A DNA stretch of 64,000 bases from the NCBI GenBank assembly GCA_050187355.1, contig JBFWXO010000010.1, forward strand, positions 12,586-76,585. The letters run 5' to 3'. How positions within the stretch are numbered: position 1 is the stretch's first letter; every line of letters starts with the position of its first letter. Shown one piece after another: positions 4,912 to 11,630 of the stretch. The translations under genes and the position numbers were made by a program. The notes under the pieces were generated by a model that saw only the letters and a list, made by a program, of their open reading frames with translations, was not told the DNA's origin and did no database searches. This stretch comes from Vicinamibacterales bacterium (GTDB lineage Bacteria; Acidobacteriota; Vicinamibacteria; Vicinamibacterales; UBA2999).

Positions 4912-5129
4912 CGCGTCACCGTGCCGTTCCATTGAAAGACGTCGCCGAGCGGCACGTCGAAGACGGCCGCGATCTGGAAAGCCATCTCGAGCGACGGCGA
5001 GTACTTGCCCAGCTCGATGGCGTTCACGGTCTGCCGCGTCACGCCGATCCGATCGGCGAGCGCCTGCTGCGTCATCTCGCCGTGGGCGGCGCGCAGGTCG
5101 CGGATGCGGTTCGTGACGGCGTGGCCCAC
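4908..5129 (-). CDS. XRE-family (YozG-like) HTH transcriptional regulator
   Basis: NRIRDLRAAHGEMTQQALADRIGVTRQTVNAIELGKYSPSLEMAFQIAAVFDVPLGDVF is a canonical short Cro/C1 HTH. The GTG start at 5129 lies 1 nt after the upstream stop, so the longer ATG-5192 ORF is unlikely. Confidence 0.85.
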   Translation of the reverse strand: MGHAVTNRIRDLRAAHGEMTQQALADRIGVTRQTVNAIELGKYSPSLEMAFQIAAVFDVPLGDVFQWNGTVTR

Positions 5130-5130
5130 G

Positions 5131-5613
5131 TCAGGCCCCCCGCCGGAAGAGCACGATCTCGGTGCCGAACTTGACGAGCTCGGCAAGGACAATGGCGAAC
5201 AGGATCGCCTGCTGCATGATCCAGGCGCTCCGCGTGGCGTGAATCACGGCAGCGCTCAGGAGCGCGCCGAGGACGAGCACGGGGAAGGCCAGCCGCGTAG
5301 CGCGCATCTCGATGAGCCGCTCGCGCTCGTCGCGGGGCGAGCGCGCCTCCTTCGGCGCGCGGATGGCGATGACCGCGTGCAGGACGAGCTCGAGCACCAC
5401 GAACACGGCGAGCAGCGTGAAGGCCGTGGTGGTGCCCTCGCGGCGCCCCATCCGATCCGTCAGCGTCAGGTAGGAGTAGTAGAAGAACGGCGTGAACACC
5501 ACGAGAAGCGACAGGAAGGAAATCCACGCGCTCTTCTCGCGGAAGGACATCTCGTCGAGCATGTCAAAGATTCTAGACACGTCGGGCCTCCGGGTGTCAA
5601 GAAAATTGGACAC
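5131..5613 (-). CDS. Small 4-TM membrane protein (DUF2178/DUF2975-like partner of YozG-type regulators)
   Basis: 160 aa with four hydrophobic helices and an SPRDERERLIEMRA loop. It is the usual upstream partner of a short XRE regulator. Its GTG start codon (5613-5611) lies inside the IS left inverted repeat. Confidence 0.65.
   Translation of the reverse strand: MSNFLDTRRPDVSRIFDMLDEMSFREKSAWISFLSLLVVFTPFFYYSYLTLTDRMGRREGTTTAFTLLAVFVVLELVLHAVIAIRAPKEARSPRDERERLIEMRATRLAFPVLVLGALLSAAVIHATRSAWIMQQAILFAIVLAELVKFGTEIVLFRRGA
5600..5607. repeat. Target-site duplication (left copy), AGAAAATT
   Basis: Identical 8-mer at 8164-8171, immediately outside the two inverted repeats. Confidence 0.8.
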
Positions 5614-5630
5614 AATATACTTGGCTAACC
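5608..5630. repeat. IS left terminal inverted repeat
   Basis: GGACACAATATACTTGGCTAACC. It matches the reverse complement of 8141-8163 (GGACATAATATACTTGACTAACC) at 21 of 23 positions. Similarity continues weakly (CTAG) for ~7 more bp. Confidence 0.85.
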
Positions 5631-5704
5631 TCTAGATCTGGAAGCGTGGTAGGCTTCGCCGCCCTCTTCCGGAGCCGTTCGAGCGAGAACCGAATAGCCC
5701 GATA

Positions 5705-5718
5705 ATGCAATATTGCAT
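5705..5718. promoter_or_regulatory. Perfect 14-bp palindrome ATGCAATATTGCAT, putative TA operator
   Basis: It lies 22 nt upstream of the toxin ATG (5740) in an AT-rich stretch. This is the typical position for autoregulation by an HTH antitoxin. Confidence 0.5.
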
Positions 5719-5739
5719 ATTCGCTACGGGAACGCTAGG

Positions 5740-6168
5740 ATGCCGGGATGGCGGTTGCTTGAGTACGAAGACGAACGAGGGCGGCGCCTCTTCACGGACT
5801 GGTACGAGAACCAGCCTGCGGATGCTCGCGCCGTCTTCGAACCGGCTTGGAGCTTCTTGAGCGCGAAGCTTGATCCGGCCGACTGGCTCGCCTTCGGGGA
5901 TCGGTTCCTAGAGTGCAAGAAGCAGCATCTTGGGCTTCACGAGATCAAGTTCAAGTGCCCAAAGAATTTACGGATAGGGCGATTGGCTGATTGCCAGTAC
6001 CGGATTGCCGGGCACTGGCGTCCTCACGAGAGAGAGTTCGTTGCGCTACGCGGATGCTTTAAGGCTGGGCGACAAGACTACGAACCAGCGAACGCGTTTG
6101 ACGATGCGCTGAAACTTCGACGCAGACTGCTTGCTGGCAAGGGAGCAACACATGAGCGCAGATTCTGA
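5740..6168 (+). CDS. RelE/HigB-superfamily toxin, Gp49-like (DUF891-type)
   Basis: The pattern WRLLEYEDERGRRLFTDWY...GLHEIKF...YRIAGHW...EFVALRGCFKAGRQDYEP...A..LRRRL matches the Gp49/HigB-like killer-protein layout. The toxin-first gene order is typical of hig loci. ATG at 5740 is preferred over the TTG at 5713, which overlaps the palindrome. Confidence 0.6.
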   Translation: MPGWRLLEYEDERGRRLFTDWYENQPADARAVFEPAWSFLSAKLDPADWLAFGDRFLECKKQHLGLHEIKFKCPKNLRIGRLADCQYRIAGHWRPHEREFVALRGCFKAGRQDYEPANAFDDALKLRRRLLAGKGATHERRF

Positions 6169-6706
6169 CCTTTGGGAGCGTTGGGCGCAGAGCAAGGAGT
6201 TCCGCGATCAGTACGTTGAGTCTCACATGAGACAGTCGATTCCATTCCAGGTGCAGGAGATGCTGAAGGCGCATGGAATGACTCAGGCTCAGCTTGCCGA
6301 GGCCGGTGGCTTGAACCAAGCATCCGTGTCGAGAGCTGTCGATCCGGACTATGGCCGGATGACCCTGACCTCAATTGCGAGAATCGCCAACGGATTTGAT
6401 GTGGCGTTTCTGGGGCTCTTTGTGCCTTTCAGCAAGCTCGAAGAATGGACTAGATCGCTACCTGGGCAGGCTGTCGCGCCCGCCAAATTCTCTCAGGAAG
6501 ACCGACGTCGGCGGCCGGTGAAGAGAGAGTTTGTGGTGGTTTCCAGCAGCAACAGCCCTCGGGCTCAGGGGGCACTGAATTTTTCAGACCCACTACGTGC
6601 CGTGCCCAATCACATCGTCGAAGTCGAGGCGAGCGGATCGGTTGATTCGGACGAAGTACTGGGGACTAGCGACGACGTTGAAGTCGCCGTGGGGGCCGCA
6701 TCGTGA
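6152..6706 (+). CDS. XRE-family HTH antitoxin (HigA-like) with ~90-aa C-terminal extension
   Basis: ATG at 6152 with a GGGAG RBS (6141-6145). It overlaps the toxin 3' end by 17 nt. HTH: MTQAQLAEAGGLNQASVSRAV...LTSIARIANGFDV. The long non-HTH tail ends ...REFVVVSSS...LNFSDPL.... Confidence 0.7.
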   Translation: MSADSDLWERWAQSKEFRDQYVESHMRQSIPFQVQEMLKAHGMTQAQLAEAGGLNQASVSRAVDPDYGRMTLTSIARIANGFDVAFLGLFVPFSKLEEWTRSLPGQAVAPAKFSQEDRRRRPVKREFVVVSSSNSPRAQGALNFSDPLRAVPNHIVEVEASGSVDSDEVLGTSDDVEVAVGAAS

Positions 6707-7014
6707 AGAATCAGAAACTTGAGCGGCGGCAGGAGATTGATACCGCCGCGTCGTTCGTGTCCACCTACGCGAACAACGTTCTTCTGGCGATGTCCCCATG
6801 GGATTTCAGACTGACGTTTGGCGTGATCGTTGAGGGCACCAAGCGGCTGCTGCGGATCAAGAACGAGTGCGAGGTCTACATGTCTCCACAGCACGCCAAG
6901 GCGTTCCTAAGGCTCCTTGAGAGTCGAGTCGCTGACTACGAACGAAAGTTCGGCCCTATTCCCATGCCGCCGCAGCCTAAGGACGATGAGGCCGCTGAAG
7001 GGGACGCTTCGTAG
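6703..7014 (+). CDS. DUF3467-like small protein (third gene of the cassette)
   Basis: 103 aa. The GTG start overlaps the antitoxin stop (GTGA). The pattern YANNVLLAMSPWDFRLTFG...VYMSPQHAKAFLRLLESRVADYERKFGPI matches my recollection of the DUF3467 consensus. Confidence 0.55.
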   Translation: MKNQKLERRQEIDTAASFVSTYANNVLLAMSPWDFRLTFGVIVEGTKRLLRIKNECEVYMSPQHAKAFLRLLESRVADYERKFGPIPMPPQPKDDEAAEGDAS

Positions 7015-7155
7015 AAACAGGTTGTTGGTGGCTGCTCTTTGATGACGAGAGCACCCTTCGAAGACCCTCCGAGAACCGCTGGAACGCTCCCACTTCATCA
7101 TCTGCGGGAACGTCTACGGCCGCGTCTCTTGTAGGGTCTGGCTTTGGCTTCTCTC

Positions 7156-8115
7156 TCACGTTTGCGGCAACTCCGAGCCGGTGAGCGCGCTGTAGGTCAG
7201 GCGCTTGCCGAGGATGCCCGACAGACCGAGCTTGAAACGCTCGGCGTCGGTGGTCTTCCGCTCGTTGAATCGGAACGCCTGTTCATCGAGGTAGCGGAAC
7301 AGGTGGAACGGCTCCACGCTGATGTAGGTACCGCCGAGAGTCCGCTTGAGCATCGACCAGTAGGACTCAAGACCGTTGGTGTGAACCTGCCCGTCAACGT
7401 AGTTCTGCGCGTGGTCGACGACCTGATGCTCGAAGTCGTGCTTGAGCACGTCATAGGAGTGCAGGGCGTCGGTGTAGACGTTCGAGCCAGCGGCGACGTG
7501 GCGGTCAACGTGGGGCAGCAGGTCGCGGCGCTTGTTGCCAGCCACCACCACGGTGCGGACGCGCGACGCCTTGCCCTTGCCGCGCTCCAGCAGGCCCATC
7601 ACGGCGGTCTTACCCTTGAAGCCGCCACGCGCCATCATGGCGCGGCGCTTCGCTGGATGGACGTTGCGAGCCTTGCCGCCGATGTAGGTTTCGTCCACTT
7701 CGACATCGCCGCCCAGCTTGCCACCATCCTCGCCCTGCAACGCAAGGCGCAGACGCGACAGCATGAACCACGCGGTCTTCTGGGTGACGCCCAGCGCGCG
7801 GGCCAGCTCGTAGCTGCTGATGCCGTTCTTGCAGTTGGTGAGCAGCCACAGCGCGGGCAGCCACTTCTCGAAGCCGATGGCCGAGTCCTCGAAGATGGTC
7901 CCGACCTTGAGCGAGAACTGCGCGCGGGCGTGGCCCTCGTAGCACTTGTAGCGGCGCTGCTTCGCCAGGTAGGCCACGCGCTCCGAACCGCAGTGCGGGC
8001 ACACCGGCTTGCCGTCCGTCCAGCGCACGGCCTCAACGGCAGCACGGCAGTTCTCGTAGTCCGAGAAATACAGGATGGCCTGCTGGAGGGTCTTGGGCTC
8101 GGCGGCGGCGTTCAT
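7156..8115 (-). CDS. IS1595-family transposase
   Basis: 319 aa. N-terminal zinc ribbon (CPHCGS...YKC), an HTH (ISSYELARALGVTQKTAWFMLSRLR), and an ISXO2-like DDE domain (VEVDETYIGGKARN...). Confidence 0.93.
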   Translation of the reverse strand: MNAAAEPKTLQQAILYFSDYENCRAAVEAVRWTDGKPVCPHCGSERVAYLAKQRRYKCYEGHARAQFSLKVGTIFEDSAIGFEKWLPALWLLTNCKNGISSYELARALGVTQKTAWFMLSRLRLALQGEDGGKLGGDVEVDETYIGGKARNVHPAKRRAMMARGGFKGKTAVMGLLERGKGKASRVRTVVVAGNKRRDLLPHVDRHVAAGSNVYTDALHSYDVLKHDFEHQVVDHAQNYVDGQVHTNGLESYWSMLKRTLGGTYISVEPFHLFRYLDEQAFRFNERKTTDAERFKLGLSGILGKRLTYSALTGSELPQT

Positions 8116-8140
8116 GAGCCAAGTCTGGCAGGAAGCTAGC

Positions 8141-8163
8141 GGTTAGTCAAGTATATTATGTCC
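8141..8163. repeat. IS right terminal inverted repeat
   Basis: GGTTAGTCAAGTATATTATGTCC, the reverse complement partner of 5608-5630. Confidence 0.85.
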
Positions 8164-8171
8164 AGAAAATT
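8164..8171. repeat. Target-site duplication (right copy), AGAAAATT
   Basis: Identical to 5600-5607. Confidence 0.8.
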
Positions 8172-8288
8172 GGCCACATGGTTCGGCGAGATGCGGGACG
8201 CGAGTCATCGGCGCCGCCCACCTCGAGCTGCCCCGGACCCCCAACCGACGCCGGCGCGACCGGGGCGGACCCGCGCTGCCCCTCGTCG

Positions 8289-9221
8289 CTACCTGCCGTA
8301 CCGGCCGACGATGTGTTCGATGCGTTCCGCCAGTCCTGCCTTCAGCTCGCGTTGCGTCTCCCAGAACAGCGTGGGCAGGTCCTTCAGATCGAACGGCAGC
8401 TCCGTGCCCTTCCTGGCGATGAGGATGACGTCCTTGCCGAGCCCCTTGGCGTAGCCGACCTCGTAGAACACATTCGAGCTCAGCTCGGTGACGTCCGCGA
8501 TGACGAAGGCGCTGTTCCGAATGCCCCGCAGGATGCGCGGAAGAATCGGTTCCGACGACGCCGACTCGTCGGTGCGCTCGGCGTCGAAGTGGTACGTCTG
8601 GCACGCGTCCTTGCAGGAATCGAACACGTCGATGAACTCGGGCTTGAACGACATGATCGTGAAGACGCTTCGCGGCAGGACCAGCCGCTCGGCCAGGCGC
8701 ACCACCTGACTGGCGTAGTCGGTCATGTCGTCGGTGATGACGTTGAGCGTTTCATAGTCGTCACCGTCGTCGGCGTTGACCTCCCTGAGCCGCACCTGCT
8801 CCCGGGCGTAGATCTTCTGCGCGGCTCCCCCGAATCGTGGAATGCCGAGAATGCGCTTCCTCGCGAGCTGGGCCCAGTTCTTGGCCCAGAAAGTGCCTTC
8901 ACCCCCCGCCACGAGGATCACCGCGTCGGCCTGGTCGATCTGCTCGGGAACGACCAGGTCGGCGTGGTTCATGCCCCAGTCCGACAGCGCGGAGCGACGG
9001 ACGGTGCCCACGGAGTGGGCCGGCGTGTCGGTCTCGAGGCAGTAGCTGACGATCCGGTCCTTCGGACTTCCCGCGTTGCCCTTCAGCCACCCTTCCGCGG
9101 CGGTGGCGATCTCCCGGTCGACCGATCCCCTGCACCCGGTCAGCAGGACATGGCCTCGCGAGGCAATCGCCGTCCCCAGCGCGGCGACGAACTCCCGGCA
9201 CAACTCTGGATCTCGCGGCAC
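8289..9221 (-). CDS. SLOG (LOG/DprA-like Rossmann) domain fused to DNPH1/nucleoside 2-deoxyribosyltransferase-like domain; N-terminus disrupted
   Basis: N-terminal half: HVLLTGCRGSVD, DAVILVAGGEGT and ILGIPRFGGAA, which is the SLOG/LOG glycine-rich layout. C-terminal half: SVFTIMSF...FVIADVTELSSNVFYEVGYAKGLGKDVILI, matching the G-x-x-Y-E-[LV]-G-x-A nucleophile motif of DNPH1/Rcl and NDT-like domains. The first beta strand (MKIYVGG) with a GGAG RBS is encoded from ATG 9252 in another frame. G+C is lower than in the otsA neighbour. Confidence 0.6.
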   Translation of the reverse strand: MPRDPELCREFVAALGTAIASRGHVLLTGCRGSVDREIATAAEGWLKGNAGSPKDRIVSYCLETDTPAHSVGTVRRSALSDWGMNHADLVVPEQIDQADAVILVAGGEGTFWAKNWAQLARKRILGIPRFGGAAQKIYAREQVRLREVNADDGDDYETLNVITDDMTDYASQVVRLAERLVLPRSVFTIMSFKPEFIDVFDSCKDACQTYHFDAERTDESASSEPILPRILRGIRNSAFVIADVTELSSNVFYEVGYAKGLGKDVILIARKGTELPFDLKDLPTLFWETQRELKAGLAERIEHIVGRYGR

Positions 9222-9416: not shown

Positions 9417-11630
9417 TCAGGCCGCAGGCGTCGCGCGGTCGTCGTCGGTGACGAACGATCGCAGGGCGGTCCTGACCGCGGCGGGGCTGCGCACCGAGAA
9501 GCGGGCGTGCTCGCTCGGCGTACCGACGGCCACGGTGACGACGCTGGCCGGCAGGGCGCGGAAGAGGTCGTCGTCGGTCCGGTCGTCGCCGAAGGCCAGG
9601 ACCGCGGTGTCCGGCGTGACCACGCTGGACACGTGGCGGCCCACCACGGCCTTGCTGACGCCGCGCAGGCGCACCTCGATCACCTTCTTGCCCTCGAGCA
9701 CCTCGAATGGCTGGTTGCTGAGGGCGTCGCCGAGCAGCATGCGCAGTTCGTGCGCCTGCCGGGGGCCGAATTCGCGGTGCGCGCGCCGGTAGTGCCAGGC
9801 GATCGACGCGCTCTTCCGCTCGACGAACGCGCCCGGCGTCGCCTCGGCGAACTGCGTGAAGATCGGCACGAGGCGCTCGAGCCACGCCGGATCGAGGTCG
9901 GACGTGGGCTGCCATTGGCCCGATCCGACCGGGCGCCACCAGAAGCCGTGCTCGGCCCACAGCGAGACCGGCAGTGCGCCGAGCCACGACTCGAGCGTGT
10001 CGCGCGGCCGGCCGCTCACGATCTCGATGTCCGTCCCGGGCCGGCCGCCGAGGTCCCGCAGCAGATCCACCAGCTCGTCGTCGGGCGCCGCCAGTCCGGG
10101 TGAGCGGGCGAACGGGACGAGCGTGCCGTCGTAGTCGAGGAGCAGCCGGAGCGACGGCGCCCGGCGGGCCTCCTCGAGCGCCGTGGACAGGCTGGGCCCC
10201 GGGGCCGCCGCCGGCCGTGGCAGCACGGCCGGGCGCACCTGGCCCATCGCCTCCATGAAGGCGCCGGCCCAGGCGTGAACGTCGTGGCTGGCCACGCGCT
10301 GCCGCATCTTGGCCATGCGCGACCGCCGCTCGGCGTCCGGCATCGTCAGGGCGCGCCTGATGGCCTCGGCCACTCCTTCCACGTCGTACGGGTTCACCAC
10401 CAGGGCGCCGTCCAGCTCCGCGGCCGCGCCAGCGAACTCGCTCAGGATGAGGACGCCCTCGCCGTCGACGCGCGAGGCCACGAACTCCTTCGCCACCAGG
10501 TTCATGCCGTCGCGCAAGGGCGTGACGAGCATGACGTCCGCCGCGCGGTACAGCGCCGAGAGCTGTTCGGGGGCGACCGACTGGTGCAGGTAGTGCACGG
10601 GCGCGGACCGCGGCGTCCCGAAGCGCCCGTTGATGCGGCCCACGGCCTCCTCGACCTGCGGCCGGAAGCGGCGATAGGCGTCCACATCGCCGCGGGAGGG
10701 CACGGCCACCTGGAGGTAGCGCAGGTCGTCGCGGAGGTGGGAATCCTGTTCGAGCACACGCTCGATCGCCTGGAGGCGCCGGGGAATGCCCTTGGTGTAG
10801 TCCAGGCGATCCACGCCGAGCACCAGGTGGCGTTCGCCCACGTCCTGCCGGATCTGCTCGACGTTGGCCGCCACCCGCTCGGAGCGCGCGAGCCCGTCGA
10901 ACCGGCCGGCGTCGATACCCATCGGGAACACGCCCAGTCGCGCCTCGCGCGCGCCGAGACGCACGCGGAACACGTCGGCCTCGACGCCGTCCACGTGGAG
11001 CAGCGATGCCAGGAAGTGCCGGAGGTAGGCGAAGGTGTGGAAGCCGATCAGGTCCGCGCCCAGCAGGCCGTGCAGGATCTGGCGGCGCCACGGCAGGATG
11101 CGGAACACCTCCGAGGACGGAAACGGCACGTGCAGGAAGAACCCGATCGTGGCCTTGGGCAGGCGCTCGCGCAGCATCGCCGGCAGCAGCATCAGCTGGT
11201 AGTCGTGCACCCAGATGAGGTCGCCCGAGCGGTAGTGATAGGCCACCACGTCCGCGAACGCCTCGTTCACCTGGCGGTACGCCTCCCAGCCCGTGGCGTC
11301 CACCGGCACGCGGTCGATCAGGTAGTGCAGGAGCGGCCACAGCACGCGGTTGGCGAAGCCGTGGTAGTGCCGCTTCACCTGGTCGCCCGACAGGTAGACG
11401 GGCACGATCGCGCGTTCCTCGAGCATCTGCGACAGCCCGGCCAGCTGCTCGGCCGAGTACGACGAGACGTCGCCGGGCCACCCGATCCAGAGCCCCTGGG
11501 AGCCGGCGTGCCACGGGCCGAGCCCGGTGGCGAGTCCGCCGCTGGAGGCGACGACACGTACGCCGTCGCCGTGCCGCTGGGCGGTCACGGGCAACCGGTT
11601 CGACACGATCAGGAGCCGCCCCGACGTCAT
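9417..11630 (-). CDS. otsA: Bifunctional trehalose-6-phosphate synthase / trehalose-6-phosphate phosphatase (OtsA-OtsB fusion)
   Basis: 737 aa. The GT20 N-terminus ([10 protein letters not shown]...[18 protein letters not shown]) is followed by a HAD-type trehalose phosphatase C-terminus ([11 protein letters not shown]...[12 protein letters not shown]). Confidence 0.92.

Follow-up and report, generated by a model that had tools for sequence, protein, structure and literature searches.

The element analyzed here is a 2,556-bp transposable element at positions 5608-8163 of a 64,000-nucleotide stretch of Vicinamibacterales DNA (contig JBFWXO010000010.1, positions 12,586 to 76,585; this whole stretch is referred to as the window). 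Judged by its ends, its target duplication and its transposase, the element is a complete insertion sequence (IS) of the known IS1595 family. In addition to the transposase gene it carries a three-gene operon whose products, according to fold models and profile matches, constitute a new cargo variant: a HigBA-like pair in which the putative toxin gene comes first and the putative antitoxin is lengthened, joined by a conserved third gene that encodes a DUF3467 protein. This triad recurs beside transposases of two unrelated IS families. We consider it highly probable that this structural and family assignment holds together with a toxin-antitoxin-type function of the cargo. As an IS, the element is a further member of a cargo-bearing kind that is already known, and its novelty lies in the cargo.

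The element is bounded by terminal inverted repeats, GGACACAATATACTTGGCTAACC on the plus strand at the cargo end (5608-5630) and GGACATAATATACTTGACTAACC, read as the reverse complement, at the transposase end (8141-8163, minus strand), which are identical at 21 of 23 positions. The same 8-mer, AGAAAATT, is read directly at 5600-5607 and at 8164-8171. Both the repeats and the shared 8-mer had been reported in an initial annotation of this DNA and were recovered exactly where it had placed them. The two copies of the 8-mer are flush with the element ends, and the prior probability of such a flush match is approximately 1.5e-5. A repeat search of the region returned as its longest inverted repeat a 29-nt, 90% complementary pair (5607-5635 and 8136-8164). 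A degenerate pattern of the terminal repeat, with up to three mismatches allowed, occurred exactly twice in the 64-kb window and not once in 100 shuffles. The duplicated 8-mer is A+T at seven of its eight positions in a window of 72% G+C, and the core of the left repeat, AATATACTTG(G/A)C, is common to the ends of related elements. A promoter-like site, recognized by consensus match only, spans the left junction on the plus strand at 5594-5621 and reads into the operon, with a -35 box (GTGTCA) in the flanking DNA and a -10 box (TATACT) within the left repeat.

Base composition also sets the element apart. G+C along the sequence is 0.55-0.66 within the element, below that of the host, and 0.68-0.80 in most of the flanking DNA; the adjoining gene at 8289-9221, at about 0.63-0.69, is near the element's values. 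By part, G+C is 0.58 in the cargo genes, 0.65 in the transposase gene and 0.70-0.71 in the flanks. The cargo genes have a G+C at third codon positions (GC3) of 0.63-0.73; the transposase gene, at 0.89, falls within the 0.88-0.94 of host genes. The low G+C relative to the flanks and the GC3 contrast support a foreign origin of the element. Because of its lower GC3, the cargo looks more foreign than its transposase. The transposase looks adapted to a high-G+C host, and the cassette seems to have been acquired later, from a source of lower G+C.

The transposase gene (7156-8115, minus strand) is uninterrupted and encodes 319 aa. Its ATG at 8115 leaves 48 nt (8116-8163) to the outer end of the right repeat, in agreement with the distance given in the initial annotation, which had also called the enzyme an IS1595/ISXO2-type transposase. 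Pfam and NCBIfam IS1595 models confirmed that assignment above their curated cutoffs. DDE_Tnp_IS1595 (PF12762) matched with an E-value of 2.2e-40 over profile positions 1-153 of 153, Zn_ribbon_IS1595 (PF12760) with an E-value of 1.3e-9 (38.3 bits, cutoff 25.4) and the NCBIfam IS1595 model (NF033547) with 183.5 bits (curated cutoff 75). The catalytic motif of the family consists of D, D, (N)E and K/R residues. In an alignment of 17 transposases, the window's and 16 relatives, the protein is full length, and D141, D216, N247, E250 and K257, together with C39, C42 and C58 of the zinc ribbon, are invariant. The nearest relatives of the transposase share at most 68% identity with it and come mostly from uncultured Acidobacteriota. 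A tblastn search of PLSDB plasmids with the transposase matched only genes annotated as "IS1595 family transposase", with identities of up to 41%. In a comparison with plasmids at the DNA level, the sole match was a 71-bp stretch of the transposase gene with 79% identity. A DDE transposase with an N-terminal zinc ribbon would be expected to bind the 23-bp terminal repeats, to move all of the DNA between them and to generate the 8-bp duplication.

ARAGORN called an 88-nt tRNA-Phe at 7197-7284 (plus strand), antisense to the 3' end of the transposase gene. This call was treated as a probable false positive because an Rfam scan of positions 5000-9000 at E≤1 matched no family, tRNA included. Similar odd 90-nt "tRNA-Asn" calls were made just upstream of the triad in three other loci (L087-L089).

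The three-gene cargo operon

The three cargo genes are encoded on the plus strand at 5740-6168 (orfA), 6152-6706 (orfB) and 6703-7014 (orfC), convergent with the minus-strand transposase gene, as the initial annotation had described them. They fill the cargo slot, which stretches from the 3' end of the transposase gene to the distal repeat. The overlap is 17 nt for orfA and orfB and 4 nt for orfB and orfC, where the start of orfC overlaps the stop of orfB (GTGA); the putative toxin gene comes first. A perfect 14-bp palindrome, ATGCAATATTGCAT, is located at 5705-5718, 21 nt upstream of the orfA ATG, and is a candidate operator for the helix-turn-helix (HTH) protein encoded by orfB.

The 142-aa product of orfA, a putative toxin, appeared orphan-like in a word-indexed search, and an exhaustive phmmer search placed it in a family of 93 representatives of 130-140 aa. 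Pfam Gp49 (PF05973; Gp49/DUF891) was matched by 9 of 64 aligned members of this family, with a best E-value of 8.5e-6, the window's own protein being unmatched; any relationship of orfA to Gp49 is a distant one. An AlphaFold2 model of orfA has a predicted local distance difference test score (pLDDT) of 91.9 and shows a RelE/HigB fold. Its top matches in the Protein Data Bank (PDB) by Foldseek were RelE, HigB1 of Mycobacterium tuberculosis, HigB2 of Vibrio cholerae and RelE1, with probabilities of 0.95-1.0 and target-normalised template modelling (TM) scores of 0.53-0.72.

The second protein, orfB (184 aa), is a putative antitoxin of XRE type. Its N-terminal HTH domain matched Pfam HTH_26 (E-value 1.4e-5) and HTH_3 (E-value 8.5e-5) and is followed by a C-terminal tail of about 85 aa. 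Homologues of 170-209 aa carry tails of about 70-110 aa past the HTH domain; the length of the tail is kept and its sequence partly so, with a semi-conserved FVPFSE..W...SLEVPSF stretch following the domain in orfB and its homologues. The cassette had earlier been called toxin-antitoxin-like. The fold of orfA, the XRE HTH domain of orfB and the toxin-first overlap sustain that description for the first two genes; it does not account for the third.

This third component, the 103-aa product of orfC, matched Pfam DUF3467 with an E-value of 1.3e-14. Its AlphaFold2 model (pLDDT 90.5) consists of three strands and a single long helix, flanked by disordered termini. Fold matches in the PDB were weak, the best being the single-stranded nucleic-acid binders PC4/Sub1 and Pur-alpha with E-values of at least 0.26. 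A search of BFVD folds returned only uncharacterised phage proteins with weak scores, and phmmer and profile searches of the PDB gave nothing informative, the profile search being empty. A SecB-like chaperone was considered as a candidate identity for DUF3467 and set aside. No SecB was present among the 50 PDB fold matches listed, and an hhalign comparison with an E. coli SecB sequence gave a probability of 0.2%. The idea has no support by sequence or fold, and SecB serves here as an analogy for the order of the genes and nothing more. A full-text literature search found no functional study of DUF3467.

Together, these features suggest how the cassette may work. orfA would act as a ribosome-dependent mRNA endonuclease toxin, and orfB would neutralise it and repress the operon, probably at the upstream palindrome. 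DUF3467 may stabilise or modulate orfB through the long C-terminal tail of the latter. The cassette is most likely an addiction or abortive-defence module that would make loss of the element costly.

Relatives of the transposase and other loci of the triad

A scan of one genome per species yielded 596 relatives of the transposase, of which the best 80 loci were compared. These come mostly from uncultured Acidobacteriota, with transposases 53-68% identical to the window's, and most have the repeat core GG(C/T)AAtAATATACTTGAC on both sides of the transposase gene. The initial annotation had made its interpretation depend on the ends being reproduced at other copies of the transposase, and had named an 8-bp duplication as the hallmark of IS1595. 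Both are borne out by 32 relatives, mostly from Acidobacteriota, which share the repeat core GGnAAtAATATACTTGAC and have perfect 8/8-bp duplications. Their duplications are 70% A+T, compared with flanks of 59% G+C, and follow a loose palindromic consensus, CWAATTWG; AGAAAATT fits this AT-rich preference.

These 32 well-delimited relatives range from 1,967 to 5,408 bp in length, most being 1.97-4.6 kb and two 5.2-5.4 kb. None is a bare IS of about 1.1 kb. All carry cargo, a variable 1-4.4 kb, and in 32 of 32 this additional DNA separates the 3' end of the transposase gene from the distal repeat, as it does in the window. The presence of passengers, which the initial annotation had mentioned for some subgroups, is the rule in this clade. 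The cargo was scanned in 70 open reading frames (ORFs) from 36 well-delimited relatives. Pfam matches included DUF3800 (6 ORFs), RelA_SpoT, DUF433 and N6_Mtase (2 each), as well as SocA_Panacea, HipA, Fic/DOC, AAA_21 (AbiEii-like) and DNA methylases, and nested transposases of the Mutator family (Transposase_mut) and of DDE_3 type were also found. PADLOC recognized type IIG restriction-modification, type I methyltransferases, mad2, PDC-S33 and PD-Lambda-5. The RelA_SpoT cargo is toxSAS-like.

Non-transposition genes carried between the repeats of a single IS define the transporter IS (tIS) concept (PMC9330008), and this architecture is read directly from the window element. By the contents of its relatives, the clade is a transporter IS lineage with a variable slot that often holds toxin-antitoxin or defence genes. 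Considered alone, the element is a standard example of a cargo-bearing IS1595 member and contributes little; the clade, mostly from Acidobacteriota, shuttles short toxin-antitoxin and defence cassettes. Since all 32 well-delimited relatives carry cargo, the clade offers a cheap, repeat-delimited route for mining small defence or addiction modules from soil metagenomes.

The triad itself was followed through DUF3467. Among homologues in the protein database, the same three-gene order was found in six loci (L085, L087-L090 and L093). The triad recurs in soil metagenomes. A metagenome scan with a DUF3467 alignment gave 80 further loci. An orfB-like gene lies directly upstream of the DUF3467 gene in 37 of these, and a hidden Markov model of the orfA family matched somewhere in the locus in 22. 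In 14 of the 37, a transposase gene is divergent and no more than 800 nt upstream, 11 of them IS1-like and 3 of IS1595 type. Of the 10 loci in which orfA can be recognised and the upstream flank reaches 600 nt or more, 9 have such an IS1-like or IS1595 transposase gene within 800 nt.

Three complete IS1-like elements carry the triad, each with terminal repeats and a perfect 8-bp duplication: L092 (2154-4618; repeat GGTAGTGGGTCAGTTTG, duplication CGGCTTGT), L103 (3047-5576; duplication CGGCCGCC) and L125 (2546-5363; repeats identical at 25 of 25 positions, duplication GAGACGCG). Their transposases, each at least 275 aa long, have the IS1 family as best match, below the NCBIfam curated cutoff. 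At least 10 further, truncated loci have the same arrangement. Four loci with an IS1595-type transposase and the triad (L163, L112, L148 and L132) yielded no convincing terminal repeats and were counted as adjacency only. Another locus (L091, 1941-4318, in the Vicinamibacterales metagenome-assembled genome (MAG) GCA_046331325.1) has a frameshifted IS1595-type transposase gene that adjoins recA and whose product is 37% identical to the window's, followed on the same strand by a RelE-like ORF, an HTH gene and a DUF3467 gene; its terminal repeats were not recognisable.

Cassettes of one kind are thus carried in elements of two unrelated IS families. The triad proteins of the IS1-like elements share only 25-49% identity with the window's, a divergence compatible with independent captures. 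IS1-like ends, the sign of a nested capture, were searched for inside the window and none were found. The occurrence of the same kind of cassette inside unrelated IS families suggests that it habitually hitch-hikes on, or stabilises, insertion sequences. A further step would be that the triad is an undescribed tripartite toxin-antitoxin family specialised for insertion sequences and captured independently by IS1-like and IS1595 transposons. We offer this tentatively, as a real possibility that falls somewhat short of an even chance. DUF3467 could then be a non-SecB partner that stabilises the antitoxin, or a nucleic-acid-binding sensor, and the triad might prevent loss of the IS and double as an abortive phage defence.

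The proximity of the triad to transposase genes could also be read as regulation. The three genes would then form an accessory module that regulates transposition instead of a toxin-antitoxin system, with the HTH protein controlling the transposase promoter and DUF3467 serving as a nucleic-acid-binding cofactor. Such a module would account for a triad that travels with transposases of two families, and it is in keeping with the tight divergent arrangement of triad and IS1-like or IS1595 transposase genes (67-570 nt apart) and with the PC4/Sub1 and Pur-alpha matches of DUF3467. The RelE/HigB toxin fold of orfA and the Gp49 matches in its family speak against it, as does the window's own triad, whose genes run towards the transposase gene and lie well away from the transposase promoter. 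Moreover, 32 relatives with perfect duplications hold quite different cargo in the place of the triad, and one triad (L101) exists without a transposase. We regard a regulatory module as improbable.

For the preferred assignment of the cassette to a toxin-antitoxin type carried by a mobile IS, several results count on the negative side. orfA itself had no Pfam, NCBIfam or PADLOC match, and the Foldseek E-values of its fold matches are weak, at about 1e-2. The deposited NCBI annotation of the source MAG calls no gene at orfA, leaving a gap between the HTH gene and the DUF2178 gene, so the putative toxin is missed by users of that annotation. DUF3467 had no informative structural or sequence match across the searches described above. 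About half of the DUF3467 genes have no HTH partner, the triad was absent by tblastn from the 80 nearest transposase loci, and the exception among the 10 loci mentioned above, L101, has the triad beside a ferrochelatase gene with no transposase. With respect to mobility, no second repeat pair, transposase or triad copy was found in the window, the exact transposase is recorded at one place only, and an exact search of JGI metagenome contigs for the empty site GTGTCAAGAAAATTGGCCAC gave 0 matches.

Insertion site and mobility

Without the insertion, the site would be an intergenic spacer of 144 bp in a genome of the Vicinamibacterales (Acidobacteriota); the element is inserted there at an AT-rich 8-mer. 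The window is 99.97% identical to contig JBFWTQ010000020.1 of the Vicinamibacterales MAG GCA_050247755.1. Only five differences separate the two, all within 94 nt at 10078-10171 in a trehalose-phosphate synthase/phosphatase gene, and at each of them the window has T or A and the contig G or C. These clustered differences could reflect variation between strains, or an artefact of the local assembly or consensus.

A Logan contig from SRR27751815 has the same left junction. This contig (L084) breaks at window position 7312, inside the transposase gene, as would be expected if related transposase copies were present in the sample; this is a hint that further copies may exist there unassembled. When the proteins of both flanking genes were looked up by exact match, the insertion described here was the only one returned. 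The further copies and empty sites for which the initial annotation had proposed a search were thus not found in the window or the collections searched. Its description of the insertion as recent and probably still mobile is in keeping with the intact ends, duplication and transposase. With a single copy and no empty site, mobility itself is a prediction, and from those intact parts we infer a recent, potentially active insertion.

The single copy, and the failure to find an empty site or a second insertion, would also be expected of an immobile relic, or of fortuitous repeats and a fortuitous duplication around ordinary chromosomal genes that happen to lie beside a solo transposase gene. Such an origin is very hard to reconcile with the remaining evidence, and we give it hardly any credence. 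The repeat pair occurs twice in the window versus zero in shuffles, the duplication is flush and perfect, and the repeat sequence and 8-bp duplication recur in 32 relatives. In addition, the transposase reading frame is unbroken, with every invariant residue in place, and G+C is lower across the whole of 5608-8163 than in the flanks.

On one side, the element adjoins a gene (8289-9221, minus strand) for a 310-aa SLOG/TIR-like protein that matched a PADLOC TIR effector with an E-value of 5e-15 and also had weak SLOG (LDcluster4) and nucleoside 2-deoxyribosyltransferase matches. On the other side is an operon of a DUF2178-like membrane protein and an XRE regulator. The SLOG/TIR-like protein may be a defence effector, which would place the IS in a small defence-type neighbourhood.

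This neighbour is one of several observations by which the triad might be taken mainly as an anti-phage abortive-infection system resembling toxin-antitoxin-chaperone (TAC) systems, in which DUF3467 would stabilise the antitoxin, or sense through its tail, and the IS would serve as a vehicle. The order of toxin, antitoxin with C-terminal extension and small third protein mirrors HigB1-HigA1-SecB of M. tuberculosis, HigB1 is the second-best fold match of orfA, sister elements carry recognised defence genes, and TAC systems are reported in phage defence (bioRxiv 10.1101/2024.02.24.581848; PMC5105189; PMC6377645). Against this, none of the three triad proteins had a convincing PADLOC model match, DUF3467 lacks SecB similarity by profile (0.2%) or by fold (none among the 50 PDB matches listed), and the literature search gave no experimental link of DUF3467 to chaperoning or defence. 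A primarily anti-phage role seems to us rather unlikely on present evidence; it overlaps with an addiction function and does not exclude it.

Comparison with known systems

Cargo-bearing members of the IS1595 family are reportedly catalogued already, by Siguier and co-workers in 2009 and in ISfinder. The GG..AT.ATAT ends, the 8-bp duplication and the cargo agree with the ISNwi1 subgroup, and this subgroup label is used provisionally. In common with that subgroup, the element has one DDE transposase bearing a zinc ribbon at its N terminus, a target duplication of 8 bp, short terminal repeats that start with GG followed by an A/T-rich ATAT motif, and passengers located between the transposase gene and the distal repeat. 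Its length of 2.56 kb lies inside the 1.75-4.75 kb that we presume for cargo-bearing members, a range exceeded by the two relatives of 5.2-5.4 kb. For the ends we assume a consensus of ggnnatTAT. The relatives read GGTAATTATATAC or GGCAATAATATAC and fit it, whereas the window element reads GGACACAATATAC, only a loose fit, its ends having GGACACAAT in place of the consensus. The element also differs in that its transposase is no more than 41% identical to plasmid-borne annotated IS1595 transposases, and in that its RelE-like/HTH/DUF3467 cargo is absent from the 80 nearest relatives.

The IS1-like transporter ISs (L092, L103 and L125) resemble the window element in holding a homologous RelE-like/HTH/DUF3467 triad inside their repeats and in having 8-bp duplications. 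Their transposases are unrelated to the window's, and their ends read GGTAGTG.... In these elements the transposase gene is divergent from and upstream of the triad, while in the window it is convergent and downstream.

Like type II HigBA or Gp49-HTH systems, the cassette combines a putative RelE/ParE-superfamily toxin, assigned from its model, with an adjacent HTH gene in a toxin-first overlap. Toxin-antitoxin pairs, including Gp49-HTH_37 (HigBA-like) pairs, have been described within Tn3-family transposons (Lima-Mendez et al. 2020, PMC7157771). The window's cassette is similar to these in that the gene for a putative RelE/ParE-superfamily toxin, distantly Gp49-like, precedes a putative HTH antitoxin gene inside a transposable element, and in that sequence-divergent cassettes are spread over several element families, a distribution that independent captures could explain. 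It differs in its vehicle, a small IS (IS1595 or IS1-like) without resolvase or res site, in the addition of the conserved third gene, DUF3467, and in an antitoxin of about twice the usual length.

With the HigB1-HigA1-SecB system of M. tuberculosis (PMC5105189, PMC6377645), the cassette has in common the order of toxin, antitoxin and small third protein, a HigB-like toxin fold, and an antitoxin with a long C-terminal extension past its DNA-binding domain. The third protein is where the two differ: in the window it is a 103-aa DUF3467 protein of three strands and a helix, without detectable similarity to SecB. If the triad is an addiction or defence module, the partnership of toxin-antitoxin systems with transposons known from Tn3 extends to the smallest transposons, and DUF3467 gains a testable role.

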